Source of the DNA: Terriglobia bacterium
GTDB lineage: Bacteria > Acidobacteriota > Terriglobia > Bryobacterales > JACQDG01
Assembly (NCBI GenBank): GCA_041477005.1
Contig: JBGOUJ010000002.1
Location: 1-50,326 of the forward strand
DNA length: 50,326 nt
Direction: 5' to 3'
Under the pieces are notes generated by a model. That model made no database searches and had not been told where the DNA came from. It saw only the letters and a program-made list of their open reading frames with translations. Of the stretch, positions 29,988-46,161 are shown piece by piece (position 1 is the stretch's first letter; every line of letters starts with the position of its first letter). Both the position numbers and the translations under genes were made by a program.

Positions 29988-31037
29988 ATGCGGGTGTTGG
30001 TTACAGGAAGTGAAGGATATATCGGCTCGGTGCTGGTTCCGCTGCTGGTGGAGCGCGGACATGACGTGGCAGGTTTTGACACCGGCTATTTCGCCGAGGC
30101 CCGGTTCCTGCCGCTGGCGGCCAGCGAGTTGACGCGGCGCGGCGACTTGCGGGAGATCGAGGCGAAAGACCTGAAGGGATTCGACGCTATCATCCATCTG
30201 GGGGCGCTTTCCAACGATCCTTGGGGCCAGTTGAATCCGGAGCTGACCCAGCAAATCAACTACGAGTGCAGCGTTCGCCTGGCCAAGCTGGCCAAGCAAG
30301 CCGGGGTGGCGCGGTTTCTGTTTTCCTCATCGTGCAGCACGTACGGCGCGGCGTCGCAGGGGGGCGTGGTCGAAACCGACGAGCTGAACCCTCTGAGCGC
30401 CTATGCGGTGGCAAAGGTGATGGCCGAACGGGACATCACGCCGCTGGCCGATGACCGCTTCGCTCCGACGTTCCTGCGCAACGCCACGGTCTACGGCGTT
30501 TCGCCCCGCATGCGCTTCGACCTGGTGCTGAACAATCTGGCCGGCTGGGCTTTCACGACGGGAAAGATCGTCATCCAGAGTGACGGCACCCCGTGGCGGC
30601 CGCTGGTGCACGTCCGGGACGTGTCGGCGGCGTTCCTGGCCATCATGGAAGCTCCGCGGGAGGTGGTGGCGAACCAGGTGTTCAACATCGGTCAGGAGAG
30701 CGAGAACTATCAGGTCCGGGATCTCGCGGCGGCGACGGAGAAGGAGTTCCCAGGCAGCACGGTGGTTTATGCCGACCAGGCGTCGACGGGCGATCCCCGG
30801 TCCTATCGCGTCTCGTTCCGAAAGTTCTGGTCGGCTTTTCCGAACCTGCGGTTTGAATGGAACGCCGAGAAGGGGCTGCGGGAGCTGCACGAAGTTTTCG
30901 ACCGCGTGGGCTTCACCGGCGACCATTTTCAGCACCGCGACTTTATCCGGCTGAAGCAGATCGAGCACCTGCTGGAGACCGGCGCTCTGGACCACGAACT
31001 GCGATGGACCTGCGCGCTGGCGGCGCGGGAGGCGTAA
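29988..31037 (+). CDS. NAD-dependent NDP-sugar epimerase/oxidoreductase (extended SDR)
   Basis: GSEGYIG, SSSCS, YAVAK, RMRFDLVLN, SDGTPWRP. Confidence 0.88.
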   Translation: MRVLVTGSEGYIGSVLVPLLVERGHDVAGFDTGYFAEARFLPLAASELTRRGDLREIEAKDLKGFDAIIHLGALSNDPWGQLNPELTQQINYECSVRLAKLAKQAGVARFLFSSSCSTYGAASQGGVVETDELNPLSAYAVAKVMAERDITPLADDRFAPTFLRNATVYGVSPRMRFDLVLNNLAGWAFTTGKIVIQSDGTPWRPLVHVRDVSAAFLAIMEAPREVVANQVFNIGQESENYQVRDLAAATEKEFPGSTVVYADQASTGDPRSYRVSFRKFWSAFPNLRFEWNAEKGLRELHEVFDRVGFTGDHFQHRDFIRLKQIEHLLETGALDHELRWTCALAAREA

Positions 31038-31040
31038 GCG

Positions 31041-31490
31041 ATGATTGACGGCGTCAAGGTCATTCCGTTGAGGCGCATTCCCGACGAGCGCGGGACCATC
31101 TACCACGTCCTGCGCGCCGACGCGCCGCACTTCGCCGGCTTCGGCGAAGCGTACGTGTCCAAGATCTACCCGGACATCATCAAGGGCTGGCACATCCACA
31201 AAACGATGTGTCTGAACTACGCCGTGATCTCGGGCATGGTGAAGCTGGTGCTCTACGATTCCCGGCCCAATTCCTCCACCAAGGGGGAGCTGATGGAGCT
31301 ATTTATTGGTGATGACAACTATTGTCTGGTACAGATTCCTCCGGGCGTGGTCAACGGCCAGAAAGGCATGCCCCCCGAGCCCGCCTTGTTGATCAATGTC
31401 GCAACCCAGGCCCACACCCCCGGGGAGATGCAACGGATAGATCCGTTTTCGCCCGATATCCCGTACAAGTGGGATGTCGTGCATAGTTGA
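31041..31490 (+). CDS. RmlC-like cupin NDP-sugar epimerase family protein
   Basis: MIDGV, DERG, IKGWHIH, LYDSR..SST, IPPGV. Confidence 0.85.
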   Translation: MIDGVKVIPLRRIPDERGTIYHVLRADAPHFAGFGEAYVSKIYPDIIKGWHIHKTMCLNYAVISGMVKLVLYDSRPNSSTKGELMELFIGDDNYCLVQIPPGVVNGQKGMPPEPALLINVATQAHTPGEMQRIDPFSPDIPYKWDVVHS

Positions 31491-31583
31491 AAAACCGCTT
31501 CGACCCGGCACTCCCCCACGGAGATCGAACGCCTCGATCTTCTCTCGCCGCCGCACGAAGCAGAACGATTCCTTTCGAGGTGA
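31491..31583 (+). pseudogene. Relic 3' end of a homologous cupin gene
   Basis: ASTRHSPTEIERLDLLSP vs upstream ATQAHTPGEMQRIDPFSP (8/18 identical, ungapped). Confidence 0.55.
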
Positions 31584-31590
31584 GCCACGA

Positions 31591-32724
31591 ATGCTGACAC
31601 GCGAAAAAGTGCGTTTATCGAAATCGACCGTGGGCGACTGCGAGATGCAAGCGGTGGCCGAGGTGATCCGCGACGGCCGTCTGGGGATGGGGCCGCTGGT
31701 GGAAAAGTTCGAGCGCGAGCTGGCCGATTTCATCGGCGGCGATCGGGCCGTGATGTGCGTCAATACCGGCACGTCGGCGCTGCATCTGGGCCTGCAGGCC
31801 TGCGGCGTGAGCGCGGGGGACGAGGTGCTCGTGCCCACGCTCACCTATGTCGCTTCCTTCCAGGCGATCTCGGCCACCGGCGCCAGGCCGGTCGCCTGCG
31901 AAATGCGGGCCGAGGACTGCACGCTGGACGTGGAGGACGCCGCCCGGCGCGTCACGCCGCGCACCAAGGCCATCATGCCGGTACACTACGCGAGCGGTCA
32001 GGGAGACCTGGAGGGCGTCTACGATCTGGCGCGGCGCCAGGGCCTGCGCGTGGTCGAGGACGCGGCCCACGCCTTCGGCGGCTTCTGGAACGGCCAGCGC
32101 GTGGGCGCCTACGGCGATGTGGTCTGTTTCAGTTTCGACGGCATCAAGAACATCACCTGTGGGGAGGGCGGCGCCGTCGTGACCGCCGATCCGGTGGTCG
32201 CCGATCGCGTCCGCGACGCCCGGCTGCTGGGCGTGGAGAAGGATACCGGCAAGCGCTACGCCGGCCAGCGGAGCTGGGAGTTCGACGTCACCGGGCAAGG
32301 CTGGCGCTATCACATGAGCAATCTCAACGCGGCGATCGGCCGCGCGCAGCTCCGCCGGCTCGACGTGGAATTCGCGCCCCGCCGGATCGCCCTGGCCAGG
32401 CGCTACGTGGAACTACTCGCGGGCGCGACCAATGTGCGGCACCTCAAGCTGGATTACGGCCTGGTGGTCCCTCACATTTTCCCTGTCCTGATCGGCGAGG
32501 GGAAGCGGGACGAGGCCCGGCAGCGGCTGCTGGCCGAAGACGTCGAGTGCGGCATTCACTACAAGCCGAATCATCTGCTGTCGTACTACGGCGGCGGACG
32601 GGTTTCGCTGCCGGTGGCGGAGCAGCTTTATGCAGAGCTGCTGACGCTGCCGCTGCACGTGGACCTGATGGAGGAGGATCAAGACCGCGCCGTCGAAATC
32701 CTAAAGGACTGCATGAGGGGCTGA
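31591..32724 (+). CDS. DegT/DnrJ/EryC1/StrS sugar aminotransferase
   Basis: NTGTSALHL, PVHYAS, EDAAHA, SFDGIKNITCGEGG. Confidence 0.92.
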   Translation: MLTREKVRLSKSTVGDCEMQAVAEVIRDGRLGMGPLVEKFERELADFIGGDRAVMCVNTGTSALHLGLQACGVSAGDEVLVPTLTYVASFQAISATGARPVACEMRAEDCTLDVEDAARRVTPRTKAIMPVHYASGQGDLEGVYDLARRQGLRVVEDAAHAFGGFWNGQRVGAYGDVVCFSFDGIKNITCGEGGAVVTADPVVADRVRDARLLGVEKDTGKRYAGQRSWEFDVTGQGWRYHMSNLNAAIGRAQLRRLDVEFAPRRIALARRYVELLAGATNVRHLKLDYGLVVPHIFPVLIGEGKRDEARQRLLAEDVECGIHYKPNHLLSYYGGGRVSLPVAEQLYAELLTLPLHVDLMEEDQDRAVEILKDCMRG

Positions 32725-32738
32725 TGGGAGAAAAATAC

Positions 32739-33689
32739 ATGCAGGACAAGCAACCACTTATTTCGGTGCTCATGTCGGTGAAGAACGGGCTGCCGTACGT
32801 CCGCGGGACCGTGGAGAGCATCCTGGCCCAGACCGCGACCGACTGGGAGTTTGTGATTGTAGACAACGCCAGCACGGACGGCAGCGCCGAGCTCATCGAG
32901 CGAATCGCCAGGAACGAGCCGCGCATCCGCCTGTTCCGCAATCCGGCGGATCTCGGTCACAGCGGCGGCTTGAACCGCGGCTTGGCCGAGTGCCGCGGCG
33001 TGTGGGTGGCGCGCCTCGACGCCGATGACATCGCGATGCCGGACCGCTTCGAGCGGCAGTTGGAATTCCTTCGCGAGAATTCCGACGTAAAAGTGACCAG
33101 TTGCCTGGCGTTGTACATCAACACGCAGGGCGAGACGGTGGGGAAAACATACAGCGAGCCGGCCACGCGGGAGACCTTCCAGAGGTACCTGAGAGAAAAC
33201 CTCGCCTTCGGTCTGCTGCACCCGGGGGCGATGGTGGACCGGGAGCTGTTCGTCAAGATCGGAGGCTACCGGGCTGCTTACGACCCGGCTAACGATACGG
33301 ACCTGTGGGGCCGGCTGGCCGACGCGGGCGGCGTGATCCTGGTGCAGCAGGAATACCTGATGAAATACCGGGTCCACGGCGGCTCGATCACCTCGCAGTC
33401 GTTCGAGCGCCTGCGGACGAAGTACCAATGGGCGCGGGACTGCATGCGAGCGCGCCGGAAGGGCCTGCCGGAGCCCACCTGGGAAGACTACGTGGCCGCG
33501 CGGCGCAACGCCCCGTGGTGGAAGCGGCTGAACCGGTGGCGCAAGACCAACGCCAGGAAGTTTTACCGGCAGTCAGCCCAGGACCTGATCTCCAACCACA
33601 CCTTCCGCGCGGCTTTCGAGGTTTTCCTGGCCATGCTACTGCAGCCGTCTTACGCGGCTCCCCGTTTGCTGGGACAAATTCACCGATGA
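32739..33689 (+). CDS. GT2 family glycosyltransferase
   Basis: ISVLMSV, IVDNASTD, ARLDADD; SD GGAG before ATG 32739. Confidence 0.9.
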   Translation: MQDKQPLISVLMSVKNGLPYVRGTVESILAQTATDWEFVIVDNASTDGSAELIERIARNEPRIRLFRNPADLGHSGGLNRGLAECRGVWVARLDADDIAMPDRFERQLEFLRENSDVKVTSCLALYINTQGETVGKTYSEPATRETFQRYLRENLAFGLLHPGAMVDRELFVKIGGYRAAYDPANDTDLWGRLADAGGVILVQQEYLMKYRVHGGSITSQSFERLRTKYQWARDCMRARRKGLPEPTWEDYVAARRNAPWWKRLNRWRKTNARKFYRQSAQDLISNHTFRAAFEVFLAMLLQPSYAAPRLLGQIHR

Positions 33690-33799
33690 CCACATCCCAT
33701 CCACAAATCGGACTGCAAGCGACGGGGGATCCTGCTGTGCCGCACGATGGACAAGCTAAAGGACGGCATGAGACTTTGCCTCCCGGCGAGGAGTCCAAA

Positions 33800-34645
33800 A
33801 TGGAAATCCTAGAGAAGACCATGCCAGTCAAGGAATGTCCTCCCAAGCGAGCCGTCCTGGGAGTCGGCATCAGCACGACGAGTTATGCCGAGGTCGCCCG
33901 ATACTGCAAGCAGTGGATTGAGGCGCGCCACAACTGGACGGAGAAAACCCCCGGGCTCCCACCCTCGCCCGCCGGGCGCTACATCTGTGTCACGTCGGTT
34001 CACGGCACGGTCACTGCGACCATGGATCCCCTTTTTCGAGCAATCCTGAACGACGCCGATATCGCCACTCCTGACGGCATGCCCGTGGTATGGGCGTTGC
34101 GTTCTTTCCAGGTGACCGGGCAACAGAGGGTGTACGGGCCCGAATTGATGCTCGTGATCTGCGAGCAAGCGGCGCAACTGGGGCACCGCCTCTTTCTCTA
34201 CGGCGGGCGCGAGGCAGCGCTGCAAGACCTGCGCCGGCGGCTGCTGGAGCGGTTTCCCCGCCTAACGATAGCAGGGACCTATTCCCCGCCGTTTCGGGCG
34301 CTCACTCCCGAAGAGGACGCCGCCGTCTCAGAAACAATCACCCGGTCGAACGCCGACATCATCTTCGTGGGTCTCAGCACGCCAAAGCAGGAAAAGTGGA
34401 TGTCTCAACACCGGGATCGGTTCCCCGGCGTCGTCCTGGTGGGGGTCGGCGCGGCGTTTGACTTTCATGCCGGGCGCGTCCGGCAGGCCCCGCCGTGGAT
34501 GCAGCGTGCGGGGCTCGAATGGTTGTTCCGGCTGCTGATGGAGCCGCGAAGGCTCTGGAAGCGTTACTTGCTGGTCACGCCGTTGTTTCTTCCGTTGTGG
34601 GCGATGCAGAAAGTGGGAATTCTCAAGTATCGCGACGTACCTTGA
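33800..34645 (+). CDS. WecB/TagA/CpsF (GT26) glycosyltransferase
   Basis: PDGMPVVW, RVYGPEL, YSPPF, GLSTPKQE, VGAAFDF, GLEWLFRL..EPRRLWKRY. Confidence 0.9.
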   Translation: MEILEKTMPVKECPPKRAVLGVGISTTSYAEVARYCKQWIEARHNWTEKTPGLPPSPAGRYICVTSVHGTVTATMDPLFRAILNDADIATPDGMPVVWALRSFQVTGQQRVYGPELMLVICEQAAQLGHRLFLYGGREAALQDLRRRLLERFPRLTIAGTYSPPFRALTPEEDAAVSETITRSNADIIFVGLSTPKQEKWMSQHRDRFPGVVLVGVGAAFDFHAGRVRQAPPWMQRAGLEWLFRLLMEPRRLWKRYLLVTPLFLPLWAMQKVGILKYRDVP

Positions 34646-34671
34646 AATCGAAAAGGAGATCGAAAGCGCGT

Positions 34672-35700
34672 ATGTCAGAACAAACAAAGGTTCTAGTTAC
34701 TGGAGCGGGTGGTTTCATCGGACATCATTTGGCGAAGTACCTGGTGGCCCGTGGTTACTGGGTCCGTGGTGTCGATATCAAACTGCCGGAGTATGAGCCG
34801 ACTGCGGCGCACGAGTTCCAGGTCCTGGATCTTCATCTGTGGGAGCAGTGCCTTCAGGCCACGCACGGCATGGACGAAGTGTACGGTCTGGCCGCCAACA
34901 TGGGCGGCATCGGCTTTATCGAGAACAACAAGGCCGTGATCGTGCGCGACAATACGCTGATCAATCTGCATTCGATCGAGGCGGCGCGCTTGAACGGCGT
35001 CAAACGATACCTCTACACTTCGAGCGCCTGTATCTATCCGGGCTACCTGCAGAAGGGCGTGGACGTGATCCCGTTGAAGGAAGAGGACGCCTACCCAGCC
35101 GACGCGGAAGACGGCTACGGTTGGGAGAAGCTCTACATGGAGCGGGCCTGCCGCCACTACCGCGAAGATTTCGGCCTGGAGACCAGGATCGTCCGATTCC
35201 ACAACATCTTCGGCCCCCTGGGAACCTACGACGGAGGCCGCGAAAAGTCACCTGCGGCCATGTGCCGCAAGATTGCCCTGGCGAATGACGGGGATGAGAT
35301 CGAGGTTTGGGGGGACGGCGAGCAGACGAGATCCTATTGCTACGTTGATGATTGCGTCGAGGGTATCTATCGACTCATGCGGTCAGACTACGCCGAGCCG
35401 CTGAACCTCGGACAGGACCGCTTGATATCGGTCAACGAGCTGGTTGACATGGTGGCCCACGTTGCCGGCAAGCGGATCGGGAAGCGGTACGATCGGAGCA
35501 AGCCGCAAGGCGTCCGCGGGCGGAACAGCGACAACACCCGGCTGCGCCAGGTGCTGGGCTGGGAGCCTTCGATCTCTCTCGAAGAAGGCCTCGATAAGAC
35601 CTATGATTGGATATCGTGCGAGCTGCGCAAAGCCGGCCGGATGCTGCCGGCAACAGCGTCCGTCGGGCCCTTCGTCCCAACGTTCACGGGAAAGTCATGA
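34672..35700 (+). CDS. GDP-mannose 3,5-epimerase-like SDR
   Basis: GAGGFIG, AANMGGIGFI, SSACIYP, YGWEKL, REKSPAAMCRK, PQGVRGRNSDNT, as in plant GME. Confidence 0.82.
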   Translation: MSEQTKVLVTGAGGFIGHHLAKYLVARGYWVRGVDIKLPEYEPTAAHEFQVLDLHLWEQCLQATHGMDEVYGLAANMGGIGFIENNKAVIVRDNTLINLHSIEAARLNGVKRYLYTSSACIYPGYLQKGVDVIPLKEEDAYPADAEDGYGWEKLYMERACRHYREDFGLETRIVRFHNIFGPLGTYDGGREKSPAAMCRKIALANDGDEIEVWGDGEQTRSYCYVDDCVEGIYRLMRSDYAEPLNLGQDRLISVNELVDMVAHVAGKRIGKRYDRSKPQGVRGRNSDNTRLRQVLGWEPSISLEEGLDKTYDWISCELRKAGRMLPATASVGPFVPTFTGKS

Positions 35701-35967
35701 CGCCTCCCCAGATCGGCGGTCACGACCCGACGGCGAGGGAGGCCAGTGTGGCCCGTCTGTTTCGGGAACTCGGGCAACGGGAGGCGCGTTACGCCGTGCC
35801 CGGTAACTACGAATGCCTGCCCGCGTTGCGCCGCCGCGTCCGCGCCGCGTTTGAAGTGGCGGCGGCCGGGGCGCGCCAGACTGCTCGCGCGGCTCCGGCT
35901 ATTCCGGGCAGATACATCTATGATGGAGACAAGGGTCCTTGAGGAACTCTTCGCGACGGGGGGGTAG
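35697..35967 (+). pseudogene. Internally deleted third paralog of the two downstream nucleotidyltransferase-like genes
   Basis: MTPPQIGGHDPTAREASVARLFRELGQREARYAVPGNYECLPALRR matches the paralog N-termini, then similarity stops abruptly near 35838. Confidence 0.75.
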
Positions 35968-35970
35968 GCC

Positions 35971-37077
35971 ATGACACATCCTCAGATCGACCGTTACGAC
36001 CCGACCGCAATGGAGGCCAGTGTGGCCCGCCTGTTCCGGGAACTCGAGCAACGCAAGGTGCGCTACGCCATGCTCCGGAACTACGAGTGCCTGCCCGAGC
36101 TGCGCCGCGACACCCACGCCGATCAGCCCACGGACATCGATCTGGTGGTCGATTCCCGGGACATGAGGATCTGGCGCGAGGCAGTCACAGAGGTCGCCGA
36201 ACAGGGCGGCTGGGACACGCTGGTGGAGTGCGATCACTGGACGCAGTCGCAGGTGCGGCACCACCACATCGAGGCCTTTCATTTTTACCGGCTCTCACCG
36301 CCCCAGTTTCTTCAGATCGACCTGTTTCACTCCTACCTGGTTTGCGGGCTGCCGCTGGTCGATGAACGGGAAATGCTGGAAGGCCGGATCTACGATGCCG
36401 ACCGTAACCTCACCCGGATCGATCCGTTGAAGGAGAACCTGCATCGACTGTCGCTGCTCTACACGGTGCTTTGCGACAATCCCAAGGCTGTCAAGGTCTC
36501 CCGGGATGGGGAAAAGCTGGTGCGGTTCTGGAAGTCGGAGCAAGAGAGATTCGGCCGGGTGGTGCGGGCGCACTTCTCGGTTCTGGGTGTACAAGCCATC
36601 CAGGCGCTGGAGCAGGGCGACCTGCCGCGGTTCCTGAGGAAAATGCGCTGGGCCAGAGTCTACTTTTTGATGAAGTTCGCGCTTTCGCATCCCCTTCGGA
36701 CGCCCTGGTACGGGCTCTGCCGAACGCGGGAAAACCGGTTGCGGTTTTTAACCCGGCAATGCGGACGAGTGGTGCGAGTCTACGCGCCGAAAGGGGAGCA
36801 CCGGCGGCTGCTGCGCGAGGTGATGGATGATCTGGCGCGGAATAACTTCGTGGACGAATGGAAGGAAAGGGCCGCCGGATCGTGGAAGCTCGGTCCGGAC
36901 GAGCGCGCGGTGATGGAGCAGGGCGGCCTGGTAATCCAGTGGAGCGACCGAGAAAAAGCTCACATCGACGTAGCGAGCAACTGCAGCGCCGAGGCGTTGC
37001 GTGCGCGCGTGGTCCGCGTATTGGTCGAGCGCCACGAGATTCTGTCGGTTCGCCCGGCGGCAGCGGCGACCGCCTGA
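35971..37077 (+). CDS. Uncharacterised protein with nucleotidyltransferase-like N-terminal domain (paralog 1, 368 aa)
   Basis: LRNYECLP...TDIDLVVD and downstream QIDLF, consistent with a DxD...D carboxylate triad. Confidence 0.65.
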   Translation: MTHPQIDRYDPTAMEASVARLFRELEQRKVRYAMLRNYECLPELRRDTHADQPTDIDLVVDSRDMRIWREAVTEVAEQGGWDTLVECDHWTQSQVRHHHIEAFHFYRLSPPQFLQIDLFHSYLVCGLPLVDEREMLEGRIYDADRNLTRIDPLKENLHRLSLLYTVLCDNPKAVKVSRDGEKLVRFWKSEQERFGRVVRAHFSVLGVQAIQALEQGDLPRFLRKMRWARVYFLMKFALSHPLRTPWYGLCRTRENRLRFLTRQCGRVVRVYAPKGEHRRLLREVMDDLARNNFVDEWKERAAGSWKLGPDERAVMEQGGLVIQWSDREKAHIDVASNCSAEALRARVVRVLVERHEILSVRPAAAATA

Positions 37078-37096
37078 CAGGCGAAGATCACAGATG

Positions 37097-38203
37097 ATGA
37101 CACATTCTCAGATCAGCAGTTACGAGCCGACAGCGGTGGAGGCCAGCGTGGCCCGTCTGTTCCGGGAACTGGAGCAACGCAAGGTGCGCTACGCCGTGCT
37201 GCGCAATTACGAGCTGCTGCCCTCGCTGCGCCGCGAAGACGGCTCCGCGCAGCGCACGGACATCGACCTGGTGGTCGATTCCCGGGACCTCCCCTCCTGG
37301 CGCGAAGTCGCCAAGGATGTCGCGGAACAGAACGGCTGGGATGCTCTGACCGAATGCGATCACTGGATGCAATCGCCGGCCCAGCACCACAACGCCGAGG
37401 TCTTTCGCTTTAACCGGTTTTCACCGCCGGAGTTCCTTCATGTCGATGTGTTCCACGGCTACCTCATCTCCGGGCTGCCCCTGGTGGACGAGGCAGGGAT
37501 GCTGGCGGGAAGGATCAAAGATCCCGGGGGCCGCTTTACCCGCATCGACCCGGTGACCGAGAACCTCTACCGGCTGATGCAGGTCTACTCTCACTATTGC
37601 GAGAATCCGGCCTCTGCCAAAGTAACCCGCTATCGAAAGAGACTGCTGCAGTTCTGGGAAACGGATCGGGAACGATTCCGACGACGCCTCCGCTCCAAGT
37701 TCTTCCTTTTCGGCGAGCAGGCGGTCGAGGCGTTGCAGCAAGAGGACATGAATCGGTTCGCGCGAAAGATGCGGTGGGCGAGGTTGTATTTTACGGTGAA
37801 ATTCTCCCTGGCCCATCCTGTTCGGACACCGTGGTATTGGTTTTGCCGGAAGCGCGAGAACCGGGTCCGCTTCTTTACCCGGCCGTGCGGGCGGGTGGTT
37901 CCGACCTGCGCGGCGGAAGAGAAGCGCCAGACTTTGCGCGACGTTTTGGATGAGCTGTCGTATAAGAATTTCATGGACCGATGGGCGGAGAGGACCGCGC
38001 CGGCGCAAGATATCAGCAAGATCGAGCGCTCCGTGATGGAACAGGGGGGGTTGGTGATCGAGTGGTCCAGCCCCGAGGCCTCCGAGCTTGTCATCACGGC
38101 AGCGGACGACCGGGAAAGCATCGCCAGAAAGGTCATCGAGATCCTCCTGGTCCGCCATCCTTGCTTGTTCCGTCGGGCCGAGAAGAAAGGCATTGCGGGT
38201 TGA
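37097..38203 (+). CDS. Uncharacterised protein with nucleotidyltransferase-like N-terminal domain (paralog 2, 368 aa)
   Basis: LRNYELLP...TDIDLVVD, HVDVF; collinear with paralog 1 and the same length from ATG 37097. Confidence 0.65.
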   Translation: MTHSQISSYEPTAVEASVARLFRELEQRKVRYAVLRNYELLPSLRREDGSAQRTDIDLVVDSRDLPSWREVAKDVAEQNGWDALTECDHWMQSPAQHHNAEVFRFNRFSPPEFLHVDVFHGYLISGLPLVDEAGMLAGRIKDPGGRFTRIDPVTENLYRLMQVYSHYCENPASAKVTRYRKRLLQFWETDRERFRRRLRSKFFLFGEQAVEALQQEDMNRFARKMRWARLYFTVKFSLAHPVRTPWYWFCRKRENRVRFFTRPCGRVVPTCAAEEKRQTLRDVLDELSYKNFMDRWAERTAPAQDISKIERSVMEQGGLVIEWSSPEASELVITAADDRESIARKVIEILLVRHPCLFRRAEKKGIAG

Positions 38204-38210
38204 TACGAGA

Positions 38211-40226
38211 ATGAGCAAACTGGCAGAACAGATGGACATCGAAAACGACGCCGACCTGGACCCCGTCCCGGTCGGGCCCGCTGACGCCGCCATCGCCAAG
38301 CGAGTCGCCTGGCTGGCAAGCCTGGGGAGGCCGCGGGGCATTTGCGTGGCCTTGGCCGGGCCTGACGGCGTCGGCAAGTCCACCGCCGTTGACGCCGTCC
38401 GGGAATGGTTCGAGCGCGAGCTGCCGTTCGTCAAAATCGAGCTGAGACGATGGCGACCCGGGCTGCTCCCGGATCTGGGGTCGTTCGTGGGCAGACCCAA
38501 CGAGGCGGGCGCACCCCGGAAAACGCCGGGCCGCTTTCAGTTCGTCCGGCTGTTTTATTACCTCTTTGATTTCTGGTTAGGTACGTTGTGGAAGGACAGA
38601 CGACGCTCCTCGTTCCCCAAAGTGATCATTTACGACCGCTGCGCCCTGGATATGCGGGTGCACCCGGTCCGTTTTGGGCTGCGCTCCGCACGGGGAACAA
38701 AGCTGCTGTGGCGGGTCACCCGCAAGCCGGATCTGGTAATTTTCCTTTCTGACAGTCCAGCACGGATCCTGGAACGCAAGCGCGAGCTCGAGAAGCACGA
38801 AGTGGAAGAGCAGCTCGAAACGTGGCTCCAACTGGCCCAGGAGGGCAAGGTCCGCGCCATCATCCGCATAGACGCCGGGGCCGAGGAAATTGGGGCGCGA
38901 GTCCGGGATCTGCTGTTGGAGACTTTGGTTCGCGAGAATGAAGCAGAGGCGGCCGGCGCCGGCGCCCCCGAGCAGGGCCTGCGACGGATCGGCTCGATCC
39001 TGACGGGGAACGCCGATAGCGCGGAGCTTTCGACGACGGGAGAGAAAGCGGGTTGGGAAGAGACGGCTCGATTTGCCGTTTTGCCGACAAGCTCCAGCCC
39101 GCGATTTCTCGTTCCGCTCGAACCGCGGCAAGCCGCGGGCCGCTCGCTTGATGTTTATAACGCTCAGAAACCGTTTGCCCGGTTGTGCAAACAGTTACTG
39201 CGGGCCGGACTGAGGGCGGGGGTCGCTCAGCCCTTGCTGCGCGACCGGGCATCCCTACTAGTTCGCTCCGATATCGCAAAGGAAAGCCGGGACCTGGTGC
39301 TGCTCCGGGAACACCTGGGCAAGGTACTCGGACGCGATGACATTGCGGTTAGTGTTTCGCTTGGCACTCCCGGGGTCTATCAAAAACCGGCTCTGCAAGT
39401 AATGGATGGAGCGGGAACAATCCTGGGATACGCCAAAGTCGGCTGGAACCCCGATACCATCGGGCTGGTGCAGAACGAAGAGTCTACGTTGAAAACGCTG
39501 CAAAACGCAGCCCTCGGCGCCGCGATCGTGCCCCGGGTCTTGCACGCGGGGTGGTGGAATGGCTTCTATTTGCTGGTGCAGGAGCCCGCGGTCGGGTCGT
39601 CGCGAAAGCCTCCGGTGGAGATCGACAGCCGTCACATCCGCTTTTTAGTGGAGCTGCTCGGCGCTTTTCCCACTCAGGGAGCACTCCCCTGGAGCGAGAT
39701 CACCCCGCAGATCCATCGGCGGTTGGAGCAATTGAAGGCCGGCGGCTTCCATTACTATGCCCACACCTTGGAGACCGCCGTGAAGTATTGCCGGGGACGC
39801 GTGGGATCGGCATCGGTTCCGTGCGGCCTGGGGCACCGGGACTTTGCCCCGTGGAACACCCGCGTGAGGGACAGCAGGCTCATCGTGTTCGATTGGGAAT
39901 ACGCCGACAGTGCCACTCCGGCCGGCTGGGATCTGTTTCATTTCCTGGTCGAGGCGGCCGTGGAGCTGCAGGGCAAGTCGGCGGCGGAGATTTACCGAAG
40001 CATCCTGGGCCCGGGCGCAGTGCGTAGCCGCGTGGAGGGGTATTTCCAGAGCCTCGGCCTGTCGCAGGACTGGATCGAGCCGTTGTTCGTCTCGTACCTG
40101 GCCGAAGCTCTCAACCGAAATCTCGACCTCGAGGAGCGGACCCTCGGCAGCAAAGATGGGCTGTTGCGAAGGACCTATGGAACGCTGCTGGCGCTCGTCT
40201 GCCGCACCGGAGCAGGCGCGAGATGA
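38211..40226 (+). CDS. Fusion of thymidylate-kinase-like P-loop domain and APH/choline-kinase-like phosphotransferase
   Basis: GPDGVGKST, IIYDR, KPDLVIFL in the N-half; YAKVG, HRDFAPWN, FDWEYA, WDLFHF in the C-half. Confidence 0.78.
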   Translation: MSKLAEQMDIENDADLDPVPVGPADAAIAKRVAWLASLGRPRGICVALAGPDGVGKSTAVDAVREWFERELPFVKIELRRWRPGLLPDLGSFVGRPNEAGAPRKTPGRFQFVRLFYYLFDFWLGTLWKDRRRSSFPKVIIYDRCALDMRVHPVRFGLRSARGTKLLWRVTRKPDLVIFLSDSPARILERKRELEKHEVEEQLETWLQLAQEGKVRAIIRIDAGAEEIGARVRDLLLETLVRENEAEAAGAGAPEQGLRRIGSILTGNADSAELSTTGEKAGWEETARFAVLPTSSSPRFLVPLEPRQAAGRSLDVYNAQKPFARLCKQLLRAGLRAGVAQPLLRDRASLLVRSDIAKESRDLVLLREHLGKVLGRDDIAVSVSLGTPGVYQKPALQVMDGAGTILGYAKVGWNPDTIGLVQNEESTLKTLQNAALGAAIVPRVLHAGWWNGFYLLVQEPAVGSSRKPPVEIDSRHIRFLVELLGAFPTQGALPWSEITPQIHRRLEQLKAGGFHYYAHTLETAVKYCRGRVGSASVPCGLGHRDFAPWNTRVRDSRLIVFDWEYADSATPAGWDLFHFLVEAAVELQGKSAAEIYRSILGPGAVRSRVEGYFQSLGLSQDWIEPLFVSYLAEALNRNLDLEERTLGSKDGLLRRTYGTLLALVCRTGAGAR

Positions 40227-41506
40227 AGCAACGGCTGAGAGTCTTGGTTTCCGCTTATGCCTGCGAGCCCGACCGGGGATCCGAGCCCGGAACGGGCTGG
40301 AACTGGGTGCGGCAGATTGCGCGTTACAACGACGCCTGGGTGATCACCCGGGTGAACAATCGCCGGGTGATCGAGGCGGCTTTGGCCAAAGATCCCCTGC
40401 CCAACGCGCACTTCATCTACTTCGATCTGCCGCGCTGGGCGCGCTTTTGGAAGCGGCGCAGGCGCGGGTTGCATCTCTATTACTACCTGTGGCAGATCGG
40501 GGCTTACGTATTAGGGAAGCGGTTACATCGGCAAGTGCGCTTCGATCTGGTCCATCACGTCACTTTCGCGATGTACTGGATACCCAGCTTCCTCTCTCTG
40601 CTGCCGGCGCCGTTGCTGTGGGGGCCGGTGGGCGGCGGCGAGACGGCGCCGGCCAGCTTCCGGCGCGCCCTCGGTCTGAGAGGCAGGCTTTTCGAGATCC
40701 TGCGTAACGTGGCGCAGGCCGTGGGGCACCTGGATCCATTCGTCCGCACGACGGCTCGTCGGGCCGCCCTGGCTCTGGCCACTACCGACCAGACCGTGGA
40801 GCGCCTGAAACGACTGGGTTCCCGCAGAGTCCAGGTCTGCTCTGCCATGGGGATGCCTTCGGATGAGATCGAGTCCCTCGGCAGGCTGGAACGGGCCAAG
40901 GACGGCGTTTTCCGGCTGCTAAGCGTCGGCGAACTGCTTCACTTGAAAGGCTTCGATATGGGGATACGCGCCTTTGCGAAGCTGAAGGGCGTCCTCCCCA
41001 ACGCCGAGTACTGGCTGATCGGGGCGGGACCGGAGCGGCAGCGGCTGGAAGACCTGGCACGCGAGCTGGGAGTGGCCCAGAAGGTCCGATTCTGGGGCGC
41101 GTTGCCCAGGCCCCAGGTGCTGGAGCGGCTCGGGCAGTGCGACGTGCTCGTTCACCCCGTTCTTCACGACTCAGGGGGCTGTGTCTGCACGGAAGCGATG
41201 GCGGCAGGGCGCCCCGTGGTCTGCCTGGATCTGGGGGGGCCGGCCCTCCAGGTGACTCCGGAAACCGGGTTCAAGATCACTCCTCTTTGCCCGGAGCAGG
41301 CCGTTCGCGACCTGGCCGAGGTTATCCACCTGCTGGCGGAGGAGCCGGCGCTGCGCGCCCGCATGGGCGAGGCAGCTCGCCGCCGCGTGCGCGAGAGCTT
41401 TGCCTGGGACACCAAAGGAGACCAGCTCCGAGACATATATGCATCGATCTTGAGACCGGCGGCTACAGTCTCCAATCAGAGGGCGTCTGCGGAGCTGGTG
41501 GTGTGA
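40223..41506 (+). CDS. GT4 family glycosyltransferase
   Basis: SAYACEP..GSEPG.GW, KGFD, IGAGPE, HDSGG..CTEAMAAGRPVV. Confidence 0.9.
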   Translation: MKQRLRVLVSAYACEPDRGSEPGTGWNWVRQIARYNDAWVITRVNNRRVIEAALAKDPLPNAHFIYFDLPRWARFWKRRRRGLHLYYYLWQIGAYVLGKRLHRQVRFDLVHHVTFAMYWIPSFLSLLPAPLLWGPVGGGETAPASFRRALGLRGRLFEILRNVAQAVGHLDPFVRTTARRAALALATTDQTVERLKRLGSRRVQVCSAMGMPSDEIESLGRLERAKDGVFRLLSVGELLHLKGFDMGIRAFAKLKGVLPNAEYWLIGAGPERQRLEDLARELGVAQKVRFWGALPRPQVLERLGQCDVLVHPVLHDSGGCVCTEAMAAGRPVVCLDLGGPALQVTPETGFKITPLCPEQAVRDLAEVIHLLAEEPALRARMGEAARRRVRESFAWDTKGDQLRDIYASILRPAATVSNQRASAELVV

Positions 41507-41515
41507 GCGGGATGA

Positions 41516-41584
41516 GTCAATCCTCAGTCTTTCACCTGGGATAAGAAAATGGAATGCCTGCCGGAAGCGTATTCGAAGGCGTGA
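41516..41584 (+). pseudogene. Relic 3' end of a homologous GT4 gene
   Basis: SFTWDKKMECLPEAY vs upstream SFAWDTKGDQLRDIY (7/15 identical). Confidence 0.5.
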
Positions 41585-41710
41585 GACGACCATGACGAGC
41601 CACGCTCTCCCATCCGCTTCCGCCTCGACGGCTGGACCCTCCACGCAGACACGGTTAGGTATACAATGCCCTTGATCAAACTGAGCTCAATACTGAGCTT
41701 GGAACCGAAG

Positions 41711-42532
41711 ATGACCCAAAAAGCACCATGGGAGACGGAAACGGCTTGCGGCAGCTCAATGACCTGCTGCCCGCTGTGCGAAAGCAGCGATATCGGCGCG
41801 CTGTTCCCGAGCATATGGGTGTGGAAATGCGCGAAGTGCGGTATGATATTCCGAAATCCCCAACCCACCGAGGAGGAGTTAAGCAATTTTTACAATAAAG
41901 CCTTCCGCCCGGAAAACGTGGCTGCACACACCACGGGAATGGCGGGCACGACCCACTCGCTGGCAAGGCAGTATGTCTCTTACCTATCCCGCAAGATCGG
42001 CGTCAAGCGAAAAAGAGTCCTGGAATTCGGAGCAGGATTGGGAAACACCTGCCGGGCGCTGCGCGAGTGTGGAGCGGATGTCACCGCCATCGAACCGTTC
42101 GCCTGGAAGGAGTGTCGTAACGCCGGCATCACTACGTGCCGTTCGCTGGACGAACTGCCGGAAAGCTCCAAGTTTGATGTTATCATAGCTCTGGAGGTTA
42201 TCGAGCACCTACGCTCCCCCTGGCTGAACTTGCGGCAGCTCCAAAGCCGTTTGCAGCCGGGCGGGTGGCTTTACGCGGCGACCCCAAACGCGGGCGGCCT
42301 GCGGGCGCGCCTGCACGGAGCGCAGTGGGGGGAGCTTACCAAGTACGGACACCTGCTGTTTTACACCTCCGGTACCCTGGAGCTCGCCTTGAAAAAGGCC
42401 GGGTTTGCGCGGTGCGCCCGCGTGAGAAGTCACGTGCGGCATTCCAGGCATCCCGGCAAGGTCCTGGCGCATTACGCTCTGCAGTCGGCTGGGCTGGACG
42501 GTGATCTGAGGTACTTGGCCCAAACGGCCTAG
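41711..42532 (+). CDS. Class I SAM-dependent methyltransferase with N-terminal Cys4 motif
   Basis: CPLC...CAKCG, VLEFGAGLG, FDVIIALEVIEH, LQPGG..TPN; start uncertain (41666, 41711 or 41759). Confidence 0.85.
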   Translation: MTQKAPWETETACGSSMTCCPLCESSDIGALFPSIWVWKCAKCGMIFRNPQPTEEELSNFYNKAFRPENVAAHTTGMAGTTHSLARQYVSYLSRKIGVKRKRVLEFGAGLGNTCRALRECGADVTAIEPFAWKECRNAGITTCRSLDELPESSKFDVIIALEVIEHLRSPWLNLRQLQSRLQPGGWLYAATPNAGGLRARLHGAQWGELTKYGHLLFYTSGTLELALKKAGFARCARVRSHVRHSRHPGKVLAHYALQSAGLDGDLRYLAQTA

Positions 42533-42533
42533 G

Positions 42534-43892
42534 ATGCAAAGGATGCAGAGAGCGCCGCAAGTGTACCCAGAGCGCCCGCGAGAGCGGGTTGAGCCGCCGC
42601 TGGGTATGGTCAGTCCCGAACTCCCTTATCCAGGCAAGTCAGCCGTGCGCGCGCCTGGCCTGGGCTTGTTCCTACTTGTGTGCTGGATTCTCTCCCTGGC
42701 CGGTCTCTCGGCGCCGGGGCGCAGCGGGCCGCTGACCGTGGGAGCCCTGGACTCGATCGCGGTGGTCAAACTGGCGACGCGTGGCATTGCTTTCGTGGTG
42801 CTCGCGCTGATTCTGCTGCGATACATCCAAACCAGAAGGTCGCGGGTGCTACTGCAGCGGCTTTTTCCGCTCATGTTGTTCGCCGGCTGGACGGTTGCCT
42901 CCATCTATTGGTCGGCTCTTCGGACGGTGACCATCGGCCATGCCGGCGAGGTGGTTCTGCTTGTAATGCTGTCCACCGCCGCCGGCTTTCTTTCCCTGGA
43001 GGAAGCGGACCACAAGAGAATTTGCTGTCACCTGACCATAATTACGGTGCTGATGAGCCTGTTGTTGATCGTTCTCAACTTCGGCCAAATCCTGGCAGGC
43101 GACCGTCCGGTGGGATATATGCATCCCAATGACCTAGCCAAGACCGCCGGGGCCGGCCTGATGATGTTGACGTGCTGCCATTTGCTCTGGAGATGGCAAT
43201 GGACGCGCAGGCTTCTCGTGCCCGCGGCCGGCATTCTGTCGTTCGCGATCTTCGCCGCACGATCCCGCACGGCGTCGACTCTGACGCCTCTCATGCTGCT
43301 GCTGATCTGCTGGCTGCTCCGAAAAAGCCGCACCCTGGTTGTCGTGTGTGCTTTGTGCGGTCTGCTGGCGGCGGTGATTGCCTATAACCAGACGGCCGAG
43401 CCCTTGCAGGATTCCGTCGTAGCCTATATGGCACGCGGCCAGAGGAGCGACGAATTGGTGGGCCTGAGCGGCCGGACCGAGCTGTGGACGATCGCCTTAC
43501 AATCATTCCAGGCCTCACCGATTTTCGGCAGCGGCTACTACGTGATGACCGAGACAGGGTTCTTTGACGTGTGGGGAAAGCGCCAGTGGCAGACAGCTCA
43601 CAACGCGTTTCTGCATGTTTTGACCGGCCTGGGCCTGGTCGGCCTCTTTTTCTTTCTCTGGGGGCTGGTCGCCGCCATGCGACCGTCTCTAGTGGCTCTG
43701 AAGGACCTGGGCCGTAGCCGAAAGGCTGAGTGCCTGGCCGCCGTGATGGTGATATGGTACTGCGCCATGGGAATGTTTGAGCTGTCCTTTTTCGGGCCGG
43801 TCGACACAGCGGTGGTGATTTTCTTCGTGACACTGGGAATTTCTGCGGGCAGGCCCCCAGCCCCTGGTCCGGATCGCCTTTATCAACCATGA
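42534..43892 (+). CDS. Wzy polymerase / O-antigen ligase family protein
   Basis: Multiple TMs, HPN, SRTA, SGRTELW, PIFGSG, HNAFL. Confidence 0.82.
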   Translation: MQRMQRAPQVYPERPRERVEPPLGMVSPELPYPGKSAVRAPGLGLFLLVCWILSLAGLSAPGRSGPLTVGALDSIAVVKLATRGIAFVVLALILLRYIQTRRSRVLLQRLFPLMLFAGWTVASIYWSALRTVTIGHAGEVVLLVMLSTAAGFLSLEEADHKRICCHLTIITVLMSLLLIVLNFGQILAGDRPVGYMHPNDLAKTAGAGLMMLTCCHLLWRWQWTRRLLVPAAGILSFAIFAARSRTASTLTPLMLLLICWLLRKSRTLVVVCALCGLLAAVIAYNQTAEPLQDSVVAYMARGQRSDELVGLSGRTELWTIALQSFQASPIFGSGYYVMTETGFFDVWGKRQWQTAHNAFLHVLTGLGLVGLFFFLWGLVAAMRPSLVALKDLGRSRKAECLAAVMVIWYCAMGMFELSFFGPVDTAVVIFFVTLGISAGRPPAPGPDRLYQP

Positions 43893-44024
43893 TGGAGCGT
43901 CCCGCGTCTGTTGGGGATGCCGATCGGGTGTTACCGGGGCCTCGGCGGCGCGGAACTGTCCTTCGGCGGCGGCATCGACCCGGCGATTGCCCTCTTCTAT
44001 GTCACCCTGGAATAGCAGCGGGCC
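43893..44024 (+). pseudogene. Relic 3' end of a homologous wzy-like gene
   Basis: ELSFGGGIDPAIALFYVTL vs upstream ELSFFGPVDTAVVIFFVTL (11/19); restoring one G gives LGIAAG vs LGISAG. Confidence 0.7.
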
Positions 44025-44061
44025 AACTGTAGCTGTCACGGGTCGCGGCTGACCGGCGGTC

Positions 44062-45318
44062 ATGAGAGTGCTGATTCTCCACAACCGATACCGCTATGCC
44101 GGGGGTGAGGACACGGCGGTCGAGGGTGAAGTCCGCCTTCTGCAGAAACGGGGCGTGGAGGTGCTGTTTCACGAGGCGCACAATCCATCGCCGGATGCTT
44201 TCCCCCTCTCCGCCAAAGTGAAGTTCGCCGTGTCGTCGGGCTGGTCGAAGCAGTCCTATCGACAGGTGCGGCAATTGTGCCTCGACTACCGGCCCGACGT
44301 GGCTCACGTTCACAATTTCTGGTTCTCCCTGACGCCTTCGGTCCACGCCGCCAGCCACGACGCCGGTGTGGCGACCATCCAGACTCTGCACAATTTTCGG
44401 TTACTGTGCGCCAATTCGCTGTTTCTGCGCCAGGGCCAGATTTGTGAGGACTGTCTGGGGAAGGTCCCCTGGAGGGGAGTCGCCCGGCGCTGCTATCACG
44501 GTTCCTTTGTGGCGTCCGCAGCCGTCGGGACCATGATGGTGACCAACCGGGCCCGCGACACCTGGAACCGCCACGTCGACGCCTTCCTCACTCCCAGCGA
44601 ATTCGCCCGATCGAAATTCATAGCCGGAAACCTGCCGGCGGACCGCGTCTTCGTGAAACCAAACGTGGTGGAAGACTTCGGGCGCGCCCCACTGCCGGCT
44701 TCGGCGTCCAACCGGGTGGTCTACGTCGGCCGGCTCTCGGAGGAGAAGGGCGTTTCGCTGCTGCTGTCGAGCTGGGCGGCTTCGGGACTGGGAAGCTTCG
44801 GGCGGCTGCTGATCGTGGGGGACGGTCCGGCGGCGTCCTCCTGCCGCCTCCAGGCGCAGTCGCTGGGCCTGGAGCCTCCGAGCGTGGTGTTTGCCGGCAA
44901 GACGAGTCCCGAGGAAGTGCGCCGGCACATCGCCGAGTCCCGCGCGGTCGTGCTGCCCTCGCTGTGTTATGAGAGCTTCGGCCTCGCCGTTGTGGAAGCG
45001 TTCTGCGCCGGACGCCCGGCGGTGGTTTCCGGCATCGGCGCTCTGGCCGACATCGTGGCCGACGGCCGCACCGGCCTGAAGTTCCAGCCGGGAGATGGCC
45101 CAGCTCTGGCGGGTGCGCTCTCCCAAATCCTGCGCGACGACGCCCTGGCCGACCGGCTGGGCGACCGTGCCAGAAGCGAGTACACGGAGCGCTACACGAC
45201 CGAGCGCAACTACGAAATGCTGATGCGAGCCTACCGATTCGCAATCGAGCGCCGAGGAACCGAGCTGCCGGAAACCCTGCGGGCGCCCGAGCCGGCGGCG
45301 GATCGCAAACTGCCATGA
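44062..45318 (+). CDS. GT4 family glycosyltransferase
   Basis: HNRY...GGED, HVHN, TLHNFRLLC, VGRLSEEKG, PSLCYESFG...EAF. Confidence 0.92.
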   Translation: MRVLILHNRYRYAGGEDTAVEGEVRLLQKRGVEVLFHEAHNPSPDAFPLSAKVKFAVSSGWSKQSYRQVRQLCLDYRPDVAHVHNFWFSLTPSVHAASHDAGVATIQTLHNFRLLCANSLFLRQGQICEDCLGKVPWRGVARRCYHGSFVASAAVGTMMVTNRARDTWNRHVDAFLTPSEFARSKFIAGNLPADRVFVKPNVVEDFGRAPLPASASNRVVYVGRLSEEKGVSLLLSSWAASGLGSFGRLLIVGDGPAASSCRLQAQSLGLEPPSVVFAGKTSPEEVRRHIAESRAVVLPSLCYESFGLAVVEAFCAGRPAVVSGIGALADIVADGRTGLKFQPGDGPALAGALSQILRDDALADRLGDRARSEYTERYTTERNYEMLMRAYRFAIERRGTELPETLRAPEPAADRKLP

Positions 45319-46097: not shown

Positions 46098-46161
46098 CGC
46101 GAGAACTCCATGCCCCACCCCAGTGCAGGCGAAAACGACGGTAGTCCGACTGGCCGGTGAA

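Follow-up and report, generated by a model that had tools for sequence, protein, structure and literature searches.

Gene-end fragments in the large intergenic gaps of an exopolysaccharide operon from a Terriglobia bacterium

The exopolysaccharide locus and its five large gaps

A Wzy-type exopolysaccharide (EPS) operon, and the short gene-end fragments that lie in its intergenic gaps, are described here from the metagenome-assembled genome (MAG) of a Terriglobia bacterium (GCA_041477005.1; 7.55 Mb in 792 contigs, 64 % GC, completeness 94 %, contamination 6 %). The window analysed, positions 1–50,326, is the whole of contig C2 (JBGOUJ010000002.1), and the operon occupies 29.2–47.9 kb of it, with 16 co-directional genes, all on the forward (+) strand, and 15 junctions. 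The operon opens with genes for a nucleotidyltransferase (RfbF), an SDR protein, a cupin of the dTDP_sugar_isom family, a DegT aminotransferase and a GT2 protein, continues with a WecG-family transferase, a second SDR protein, the paralogues unkA and unkB (which have no Pfam family), a kinase-like gene and GT4a, and ends with a Methyltransf_23 methyltransferase (MT), a Wzy_C protein (Wzy), GT4b, a polysaccharide deacetylase and a beta-helix protein. Most of the junctions, ten of the 15, are tight, with spacings of −4 to 31 nucleotides (nt). The other five are gaps of at least 100 nt, namely cupin/DegT, GT2/WecG, SDR/unkA, GT4a/MT and Wzy/GT4b (100, 110, 270, 159 and 169 nt, respectively), and each of them contains a gene-end fragment. 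A first-pass annotation of the window had described four of these fragments (hereafter echoes) as diverged copies of the C-terminus of a nearby upstream gene. This description is clearly right for Wzy and probably right for the cupin, but the GT4 echo belongs to another subfamily than its upstream neighbour and the DegT echo comes down to a 33-nt repeat. The fifth large gap, in which the fragment is of the 5′ type, had not been listed.

The six-frame translation of each large gap was compared with all 16 locus proteins, with shuffled gaps (200 or 1000) as the null. The possibility that the gaps arose as assembly artefacts was ruled out, because contigs from other runs span them: the echo-bearing gaps were recovered in Logan contigs from other sediment metagenome runs (X1, X2 and X3). 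Contigs of X1 cover all four echo gaps (31000–35930 with 3 differences and 39670–44200 with 13 differences), those of X2 cover three and also the GT4a/MT gap except for its first 4 nt, one contig having its end 4 nt into that gap, and those of X3 cover two. Contig joints with flanks of fewer than 30 letters, which included all the joints found, were set aside as unreliable. One joint, from 32227 to 33493 with 22 other letters between and a shorter flank of 24 letters, is present in one contig in each of four runs and likely represents related genes of another organism.

A Pfam search with the five gap peptides gave no match at E≤10, and scans of the four echo gaps detected neither promoter-like nor terminator-like sites, nor any Rfam family. 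When the gaps were searched against the whole MAG by tblastx and blastn, partners were found only for the GT4 echo (on contig C220) and the unkA fragment. The template and variable repeats of a diversity-generating retroelement were also considered and rejected, as none of the 16 locus proteins is a reverse transcriptase and the identity between echo and gene is only 44–58 %.

Fragments downstream of Wzy and GT4a

The clearest of the fragments lies between Wzy and GT4b. The methyltransferase and Wzy genes form a module at 41666–43892, and the same pair is present in the relatives L012, L013, L014/L018 and L016. Downstream of it, at 43932–44032, is a relic of a Wzy tail consisting of 27 in-frame codons, a 1-nt deletion, the residues GIAAGQL and a stop, the relic ending 29 nt before the ATG of GT4b (44062–45318). 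The in-frame part (43932–44012) matches the Wzy C-terminus with a score of 66, which was reached by none of 200 shuffles, and none of 16725 genome-wide control comparisons reached even 55; the echo is thus clearly significant. The C-terminal segment concerned is almost invariant across 15 family members that are 36–100 % identical overall, and the echo has 10–13 of 26 residues in common with 14 of these members and 6 with the most distant one. At the DNA level 45 of 78 positions agree with the resident gene and 40–42 of 78 with four relatives, which themselves agree with the resident at 60–62 of 78. Immediately after the residues ‘VTL’ the DNA alignment contains a 1-nt gap, beyond which the shifted frame reads GIAAGQL followed by a stop, resembling the ‘LGIAAGR’ of the family, and the Wzy tail is therefore a frameshifted relic. 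Across the 27 codons preceding this point there are 34 differences in 81 nt but no insertion or deletion, and the GC content at third codon positions (GC3) is 0.85.

The relative L012, whose Wzy is 69 % identical to that of the MAG, keeps the order MT–Wzy–GT4b, yet in it the GT4b ATG follows the Wzy stop at a distance of 1 nt, gap and echo both being absent. Tight, echo-free junctions of this kind thus exist in relatives. Between the two loci, MT and Wzy are 67 % and 69 % identical, respectively, and GT4b only 53 %, which places a step in divergence exactly at the Wzy/GT4b seam. The idea that a decayed 5′ fragment of GT4b makes up the spacer behind the Wzy stop was not supported, the spacer showing no similarity to the 5′ region of either the MAG's own GT4b (P=0.73) or that of L012 (P=0.15). 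Two variants were seen in this gap in other runs: at 43911, X2 and X4 have G in place of T, and a single low-depth contig of X4 has an extra C after 44025. Either change would suit a non-coding relic.

In the GT4a/MT gap, the resident GT4a gene (40223–41506, PF00534) is followed at 41525–41584 by 19 codons and a TGA stop. Compared with the C-terminus of GT4a this echo scores 40, a value equalled by 72 of 200 and 370 of 1000 shuffles and hence not significant. Against shuffled DNA, then, the copies proposed by the first-pass annotation stood for Wzy (0 of 200) and the cupin (18 of 1000, see below) but not for GT4a. The GT4 fragment is nevertheless real, for a stretch of 51 nt within it (41525–41575) is 82 % identical to C220:6432–6482 (E 2.7e-7), where a GT4 gene of the same MAG has its live 3′ end. 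Over the 19 codons the echo shares 44 of 57 nt and 14 of 19 amino acids with this gene, as against 27 of 57 nt and 7 of 19 amino acids with resident GT4a. The pattern W(D/E)KK(M/L)..L.E.Y is common to the echo, C220 and the relative L016, whereas 118 of the 120 best database homologues of GT4a match the resident type of tail (W..KG...IY) better than the echo. The fragment is therefore the tail of another GT4 subfamily and not a copy of the end of GT4a, and this supports an origin from a different, already diverged homologue rather than from slippage duplication. GT4a itself is evenly ~57 % identical to the C220 protein over its entire length and so has no hybrid breakpoint.

L016, a metagenome contig that carries the MT–Wzy pair, has at its beginning the live end of an echo-type GT4 gene (...NTFVWEKKLDCLQEVYEN, stop), the stop of which overlaps the MT start. 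The suggestion that an echo might be found elsewhere as a live 3′ end is accordingly confirmed for the GT4 tail, in both C220 and L016, and the echo-type subfamily natively precedes the methyltransferase. The GT4 tail may equally be a hitch-hiker that arrived with an incoming MT–Wzy block or the remnant of a displaced resident gene.

Fragments in the cupin/DegT, GT2/WecG and SDR/unkA gaps

The resident cupin gene (31041–31490, PF00908, E 8e-10) ends in a TGA stop and is followed at 31497–31583 by 28 codons and a second TGA. The cupin C-terminus is the best six-frame match of this gap, with a score of 46 that was reached by 4 of 200 and 18 of 1000 shuffles; in the genome-wide control 25 of 16725 comparisons scored at least 45. 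The echo retains the family-conserved residues H.P.E..R.D..SP, with a stop 24 codons after the His, compared with 25 in the cupin gene, and it is probably genuine. Its own stop falls within the Shine–Dalgarno region of DegT, 7 nt before the ATG (31591), and is thus placed like the end of a native upstream gene. A cupin homologue was matched in 279 of 301 genomes searched within the order (a tally that includes one unpublished genome, G217), but among the four closest homologues inspected (L025 and L027 having been left out) none was a better partner for the echo than the resident, the relatives scoring 31–39 against 46. The junction is a module boundary: the SDR–cupin pair is kept in two relatives, L022 and L023 (cupins 57 % identical), in which the downstream gene differs, and the GC content rises from 0.57–0.60 to 0.68–0.71 across the gap.

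What had been called a DegT echo is better described as a 33-nt direct repeat (25 of 33 positions identical), the left copy of which is the last 11 codons of DegT (32685–32717) and the right copy of which lies at 33740–33772, 27 nt upstream of the WecG ATG (33800), so that the two copies flank the whole GT2 gene. In a comparison of the gap with the 3′-terminal 100 nt of each of the five upstream genes, none of 300 shuffles reached the 16-of-18 core of this repeat. As protein there are only 6 identities in 11 residues and the three frames score alike, which makes this a nucleotide match and not a protein match. The best protein match of the gap is in fact a rival one, a 26-residue similarity (33696–33773, score 52, 0 of 200 and 2 of 1000 shuffles) to an internal stretch of MT, residues 143–169, with a nucleotide identity of 47 %. 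The DegT echo is thus weak and ambiguous. A 14-codon open frame (33765–33812), preceded by an AAGGA box 6 nt upstream, begins inside the right copy and overlaps the WecG start, as read from the sequence.

The SDR/unkA gap contains a fragment of the opposite polarity. A few bases after the SDR stop, at 35705–35847, lie ~47 codons from the 5′ end of a third paralogue of unkA and unkB, whose best match is the unkA N-terminus (score 160, 0 of 200 shuffles). The DNA is 82 % identical to 35979–36121 in unkA and 79 % identical to 37109–37234 in unkB. The products of the tandem paralogues unkA and unkB have 368–369 amino acids, and the fragment looks like the deletion scar of a third tandem member.

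Reading frame and divergence while coding

All four 3′-type echoes are in frame with the preceding TGA stop, as had been pointed out in the first-pass annotation, the gene-to-echo offsets of the three self-echoes being 96, 132 and 174 nt. Frame 0 is open from the resident stop to the tail stop in three of the four gaps. The observation is correct but we attach no meaning to it. TGA is the stop in six of six cases examined at the locus and therefore carries no information, and the frames of 25 echoes found genome-wide (see below) are distributed 11/8/6, so that being in frame is not a rule. Within the locus, the gene with which the DegT-like repeat is ‘in frame’, GT2, is unrelated to it, and in the GT4a/MT gap a second stop occurs two codons after the first. 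The shared frame is most likely a coincidence.

The synonymous codon pairs that had been noted between echoes and genes (gag/gaa, ttt/ttc, aca/acc and agc/tct) are all present in the alignments, and had been taken to indicate that the copies diverged while still coding and are homologous gene ends rather than slippage products. This was assessed by simulating neutral decay, conditioned on the observed number of base differences, and comparing the amino-acid scores obtained by random substitution with that observed, a procedure which presupposes that the alignment is one of homologues. In the simple model P was 0.0001 for Wzy, 0.003 for the cupin (18 codons), <0.0001 for the GT4 echo against the resident, 0.002 for the same echo against C220, and 0.06 for the unkA fragment. 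A more conservative simulation incorporated transition bias and assigned 0–15 synonymous changes to the resident branch. With 0–10 such changes P was ≤0.0023 for GT4, 0.001–0.024 for Wzy and 0.005–0.19 for the cupin (0.19 at 10), and with 15 changes it rose to 0.022, 0.125 and 0.80, respectively. Divergence while coding is thus robust for the GT4 tail, moderately supported for the Wzy tail and weakly for the cupin tail, so that the proposal holds for GT4 while duplication of the gene's own end stays in play for the other two.

Gene-end echoes across the genome

Any interpretation of the EPS gaps depends on how often a gene end is echoed elsewhere in the same MAG. Genes were predicted with our own GC3-based caller (5343 genes, 77 % coding), which misses some genes, such as unkB, as well as small genes, and the counts are correspondingly approximate. 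For each gene, the last 70 residues were compared with the three-frame translation of the gap behind it, and the tails of five random other genes served as the control. In 3345 gaps there were 35 own-tail echoes scoring at least 45 (5.0 expected), 25 scoring at least 50 (1.4 expected) and 21 scoring at least 55, a value reached in none of the 16725 control comparisons. The Wzy (66) and cupin (46) echoes are among these hits, while the GT4a value of 40 was reached by 95 of the 16725 controls. The mirror test, in which the first 90 residues of each gene were compared with its own upstream gap, gave 30 echoes of at least 50 against 2.4 expected in 3478 gaps. Gene-end echoes are thus a general, two-sided and frame-blind feature, found at roughly 1 % of genes.

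Neither the restriction to 3′ ends nor that to EPS genes implied by the first-pass annotation is supported by this comparison, since 5′ echoes are as common genome-wide and echoes also lie beside housekeeping genes. Of 19 echo-bearing genes examined with Pfam, 16 match a family, and these are of many kinds, including a GFO/IDH/MocA oxidoreductase, carbamoyl-phosphate synthase, a PQQ dehydrogenase, a histidine kinase, RtcB, glucose-6-phosphate dehydrogenase and APS kinase. Some of the top matches are small tandem paralogues or heptamer-repeat elements. Eleven recent echoes were inspected as DNA; the copy mostly extends to the stop codon, and in at least five of the 11 (C340, C655, C166, C83 and partly C212) a second copy of the spacer follows the echo, which identifies these as plain tandem duplications spanning the gene end.

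Near-identical (96–98 %) tandem copies of gene 3′ ends, 26–129 nt in length, were noted in the contig sequence on C212, C340, C486, C16, C83 and others, among them copies downstream of housekeeping genes such as the GFO/IDH/MocA oxidoreductase and an enolase-superfamily gene. On C78, C86, C60, C166 and C613, intergenic tandem repeats of heptanucleotides run up to or into gene ends, and in translation they give repeated peptides resembling ‘QPSA.S’ or ‘HDPRSTI’.

Polysaccharide loci of relatives

The idea that displaced tails might be a systematic feature of polysaccharide loci was examined in 40 stretches of 20 kb around Wzy_C matches, taken from complete or near-complete genomes of a related family. 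As many control regions were included, most of them from the same contigs at a distance of 300 kb, and genes were predicted by our own GC3-based caller. Own-tail echoes scoring at least 45 were found in 3 of 335 gaps of the Wzy regions (0.4 expected) and in 1 of 360 control gaps (1.8 expected). All three Wzy-region hits are paralogues or repeats, involving a small paralogous gene pair, a repeat element and a TPR protein, and no tail echo of a glycosyltransferase or polymerase was found among the 335 gaps of the 40 loci, in a survey which sees only tails of the immediately upstream gene at scores that the GT4 echo here barely reaches, and whose sensitivity is limited accordingly. The data give no support to a systematic pattern. 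In a narrow literature search we came across no account of displaced tails as a general feature of polysaccharide loci; among the publications on ‘C-terminal displacement’, those considered deal with toxin loci or unrelated proteins.

Discussion

The five large gaps of the operon contain gene-end fragments, and the interpretation that we favour, with a probability of roughly 0.6, is that these gaps are module seams holding the dead scars of gene ends left by replaced or deleted homologues. The junctions would then divide the operon into RfbF–SDR–cupin, DegT, GT2, WecG–SDR, unkA–unkB–kinase–GT4a, MT–Wzy and GT4b with its downstream genes, of which the DegT/GT2 junction is tight. A homologous gene would formerly have stood at each seam and would have been replaced by, or deleted beside, the present gene through a join without homology at that end, so that its last 11–30 codons stayed joined to the downstream gene or, in one case, its first 47 codons remained on the upstream side. 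The recombination could have been a one-sided-homology (illegitimate) integration, or an insertion followed by deletion of the redundant copy. The order of these events, the standing of each tail as the displaced end of a resident gene or as a passenger of the incoming block, and the recombination mechanism are what we infer from the arrangement of the fragments. The fragments themselves are incomplete (11–47 codons each), and the frameshift of the Wzy tail is a sign of decay. The view that the gaps are seams is supported by the relationships of the tail in the GT4a/MT gap, by the drop in identity (69 % to 53 %) at Wzy/GT4b, and by the GC shift and the differing neighbour at cupin/DegT, but none of the relatives found was close enough for the earlier state of a seam to be seen.

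Several observations weigh against this interpretation. A DNA search for the locus in 30 related genomes found scattered parts matched in 14 of them but no syntenic ‘before’ state, and a profile search built on the Wzy alignment found one distant locus among genome contigs, the metagenome scan yielding informative short contigs. The GT4 tail lies 81 nt from the annotated MT start instead of abutting it as in L016, and C220 could be another organism's contig in the bin, given the 6 % contamination. The Wzy tail is marginally nearest to the resident gene, with which it shares the unusual ‘VTL’, and the recent echoes elsewhere in the MAG are mostly tandem duplications. With 15 synonymous changes on the resident branch the P values for Wzy and the cupin leave an old duplication of the resident end followed by decay as a live option. 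Finally, the nominal chance of four echoes of four being in frame is 1/81 (1/27 for the three firm tails), for which our interpretation offers no explanation.

Local tandem duplication of a gene's own 3′ end with decay of the downstream copy, from which gene-end echoes in this genome generally stem, would cover the Wzy, cupin and DegT-like cases though not GT4; we consider it unlikely as the explanation of the EPS fragments. Where a tandem duplication spans a gene boundary, the gene itself is unharmed and acquires a second copy of its 3′ end behind it (or of its 5′ end in front of it), and the genome-wide excess of both own-tail and own-head echoes (25 against 1.4 and 30 against 2.4 expected) together with the repeated spacers shows that such events occur in this genome; the affinity of the Wzy echo for the resident and the conservative simulation for Wzy and the cupin are compatible with it. 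Copies of this kind start out identical, and the spacer is duplicated with them. This does not fit the GT4 tail, which groups with another subfamily; for the other EPS tails the divergence is too great to decide, and a repeated spacer is not detectable at the EPS seams, possibly because of that high divergence. At Wzy, the spacer after the stop has no similarity to the 5′ region of GT4b, the echo has accumulated 34 differences in 81 nt with no insertion or deletion in 27 codons and a GC3 of 0.85, and identity to L012 falls at precisely this point, observations that weigh against this explanation.

The mechanism put forward in the first-pass annotation, in which homology-facilitated illegitimate recombination anchored in a resident gene repeatedly pushes the old 3′ end downstream, systematically so in polysaccharide loci, is in our opinion doubtful. 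A live gene, its stop, a short spacer and an old tail are indeed the expected product of one-sided-homology integration, and the accompanying idea that an incoming allele sometimes brings cargo fits the DegT-like repeat, which recurs behind the whole GT2 gene and so brackets it. The locus also appears enriched, with 3 of 5 large gaps scoring at least 40 against 57 of 3345 genome-wide, although this comparison is post hoc because the locus was chosen for this very pattern. However, no residual anchor homology was detected, the tails being 11–27 codons long and starting 6–39 nt past the resident stop, and GT4a is coherent within its own family from end to end. No convincing case was found in the 335 gaps of the 40 Wzy_C loci of relatives, the echoes of the MAG lie beside genes of all kinds, and the GT4 tail possibly arrived with the MT–Wzy block, which would be the opposite polarity. 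Still less probable is a single directional process of the rhs type that repeatedly swaps gene bodies, the in-frame tails being kept because rare read-through preserves the coupling of termination and reinitiation. Functional in-frame extensions, with read-through of TGA to the tail stop giving an extended protein or translational coupling, are highly improbable: they would account for four of four echoes being in frame, for the open frame in three of four gaps and for the cupin-tail stop 7 nt before the DegT ATG, but not for the early second stop behind GT4a, the absence of any extension in relatives (the Wzy stop of L012 abutting GT4b and the GT4 stop of L016 overlapping MT), the frameshift of the Wzy tail, the uniform use of TGA with genome-wide frames of 11/8/6, or a repeat that is in frame with the unrelated GT2.

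Module seams with dead gene ends are, in our interpretation, an ordinary and already known kind of feature, namely gene remnants, which is unusually dense in this one operon. Among O-antigen loci, those of Salmonella groups B1 and D1 are described as having, between wbaV and wbaU, what is left of wzy after different deletions, while in group D3 part of wzy is duplicated (PMC3715488), and a truncated galE2 remnant is among the features described as adjoining the meningococcal cps island (PMC5349592). As in those O-antigen and capsule loci, dead pieces of polysaccharide genes, including wzy, lie here between live genes; there they mark blocks of different history and serve as footprints of assembly, as they probably do here. 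Unlike those remnants, the pieces here are very short (11–47 codons), four of five are 3′ tails directly behind a live homologue or neighbour, and every large gap of the operon (5 of 5) has one; no insertion sequence or H-repeat fragment was noticed beside the tails, no search having been aimed at them.

Displacement of C-termini in rhs loci was reportedly described by Jackson and colleagues in 2009. The EPS gaps and the rhs, cdi and type VI secretion system (T6SS) loci share the arrangement of a live gene followed by the displaced 3′ end of a homologue, and an illegitimate far join has been proposed for those loci. For T6SS effector–immunity arrays and rhs, the proposal in question, as set out by Kirchberger et al. 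(2017; PMC5361080), includes displacement of 3′ ends through one-sided homology. The orphans in such loci are long, variable toxin tips with immunity genes, which keep a stretch of conserved core and are under selection, whereas the EPS tails are conserved enzyme C-termini without cargo of their own or a retained core, they show signs of decay, and the genes that follow are ordinary biosynthetic ones. If directional tail displacement did operate in biosynthetic genes it would link the diversification of polysaccharides with that of polymorphic toxins, but the present data do not require it.

Read as we propose, the scars would be a legible history of the modular assembly of the EPS operon of a soil or sediment bacterium, in which the MT–Wzy pair travels as a unit. 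The more general result is the genome-wide control, whose base rate of ~1 % sets the bar for any claim of ‘displaced tails’ at a single locus.

Two further observations concern genes of the operon other than those that border the seams discussed above. Where the beta-helix gene starts (46124–46206), Rfam gives a match to IRES_Bip that stays below threshold (34.2 bits, the gathering score being 40) and that, in a bacterium, is almost certainly a false positive. In the region of unkA and unkB (35971–40226), the 671-residue kinase-like protein encoded after these two genes shows weak thymidylate-kinase-like and APH-like matches, both of which lie below the Pfam cut-offs.

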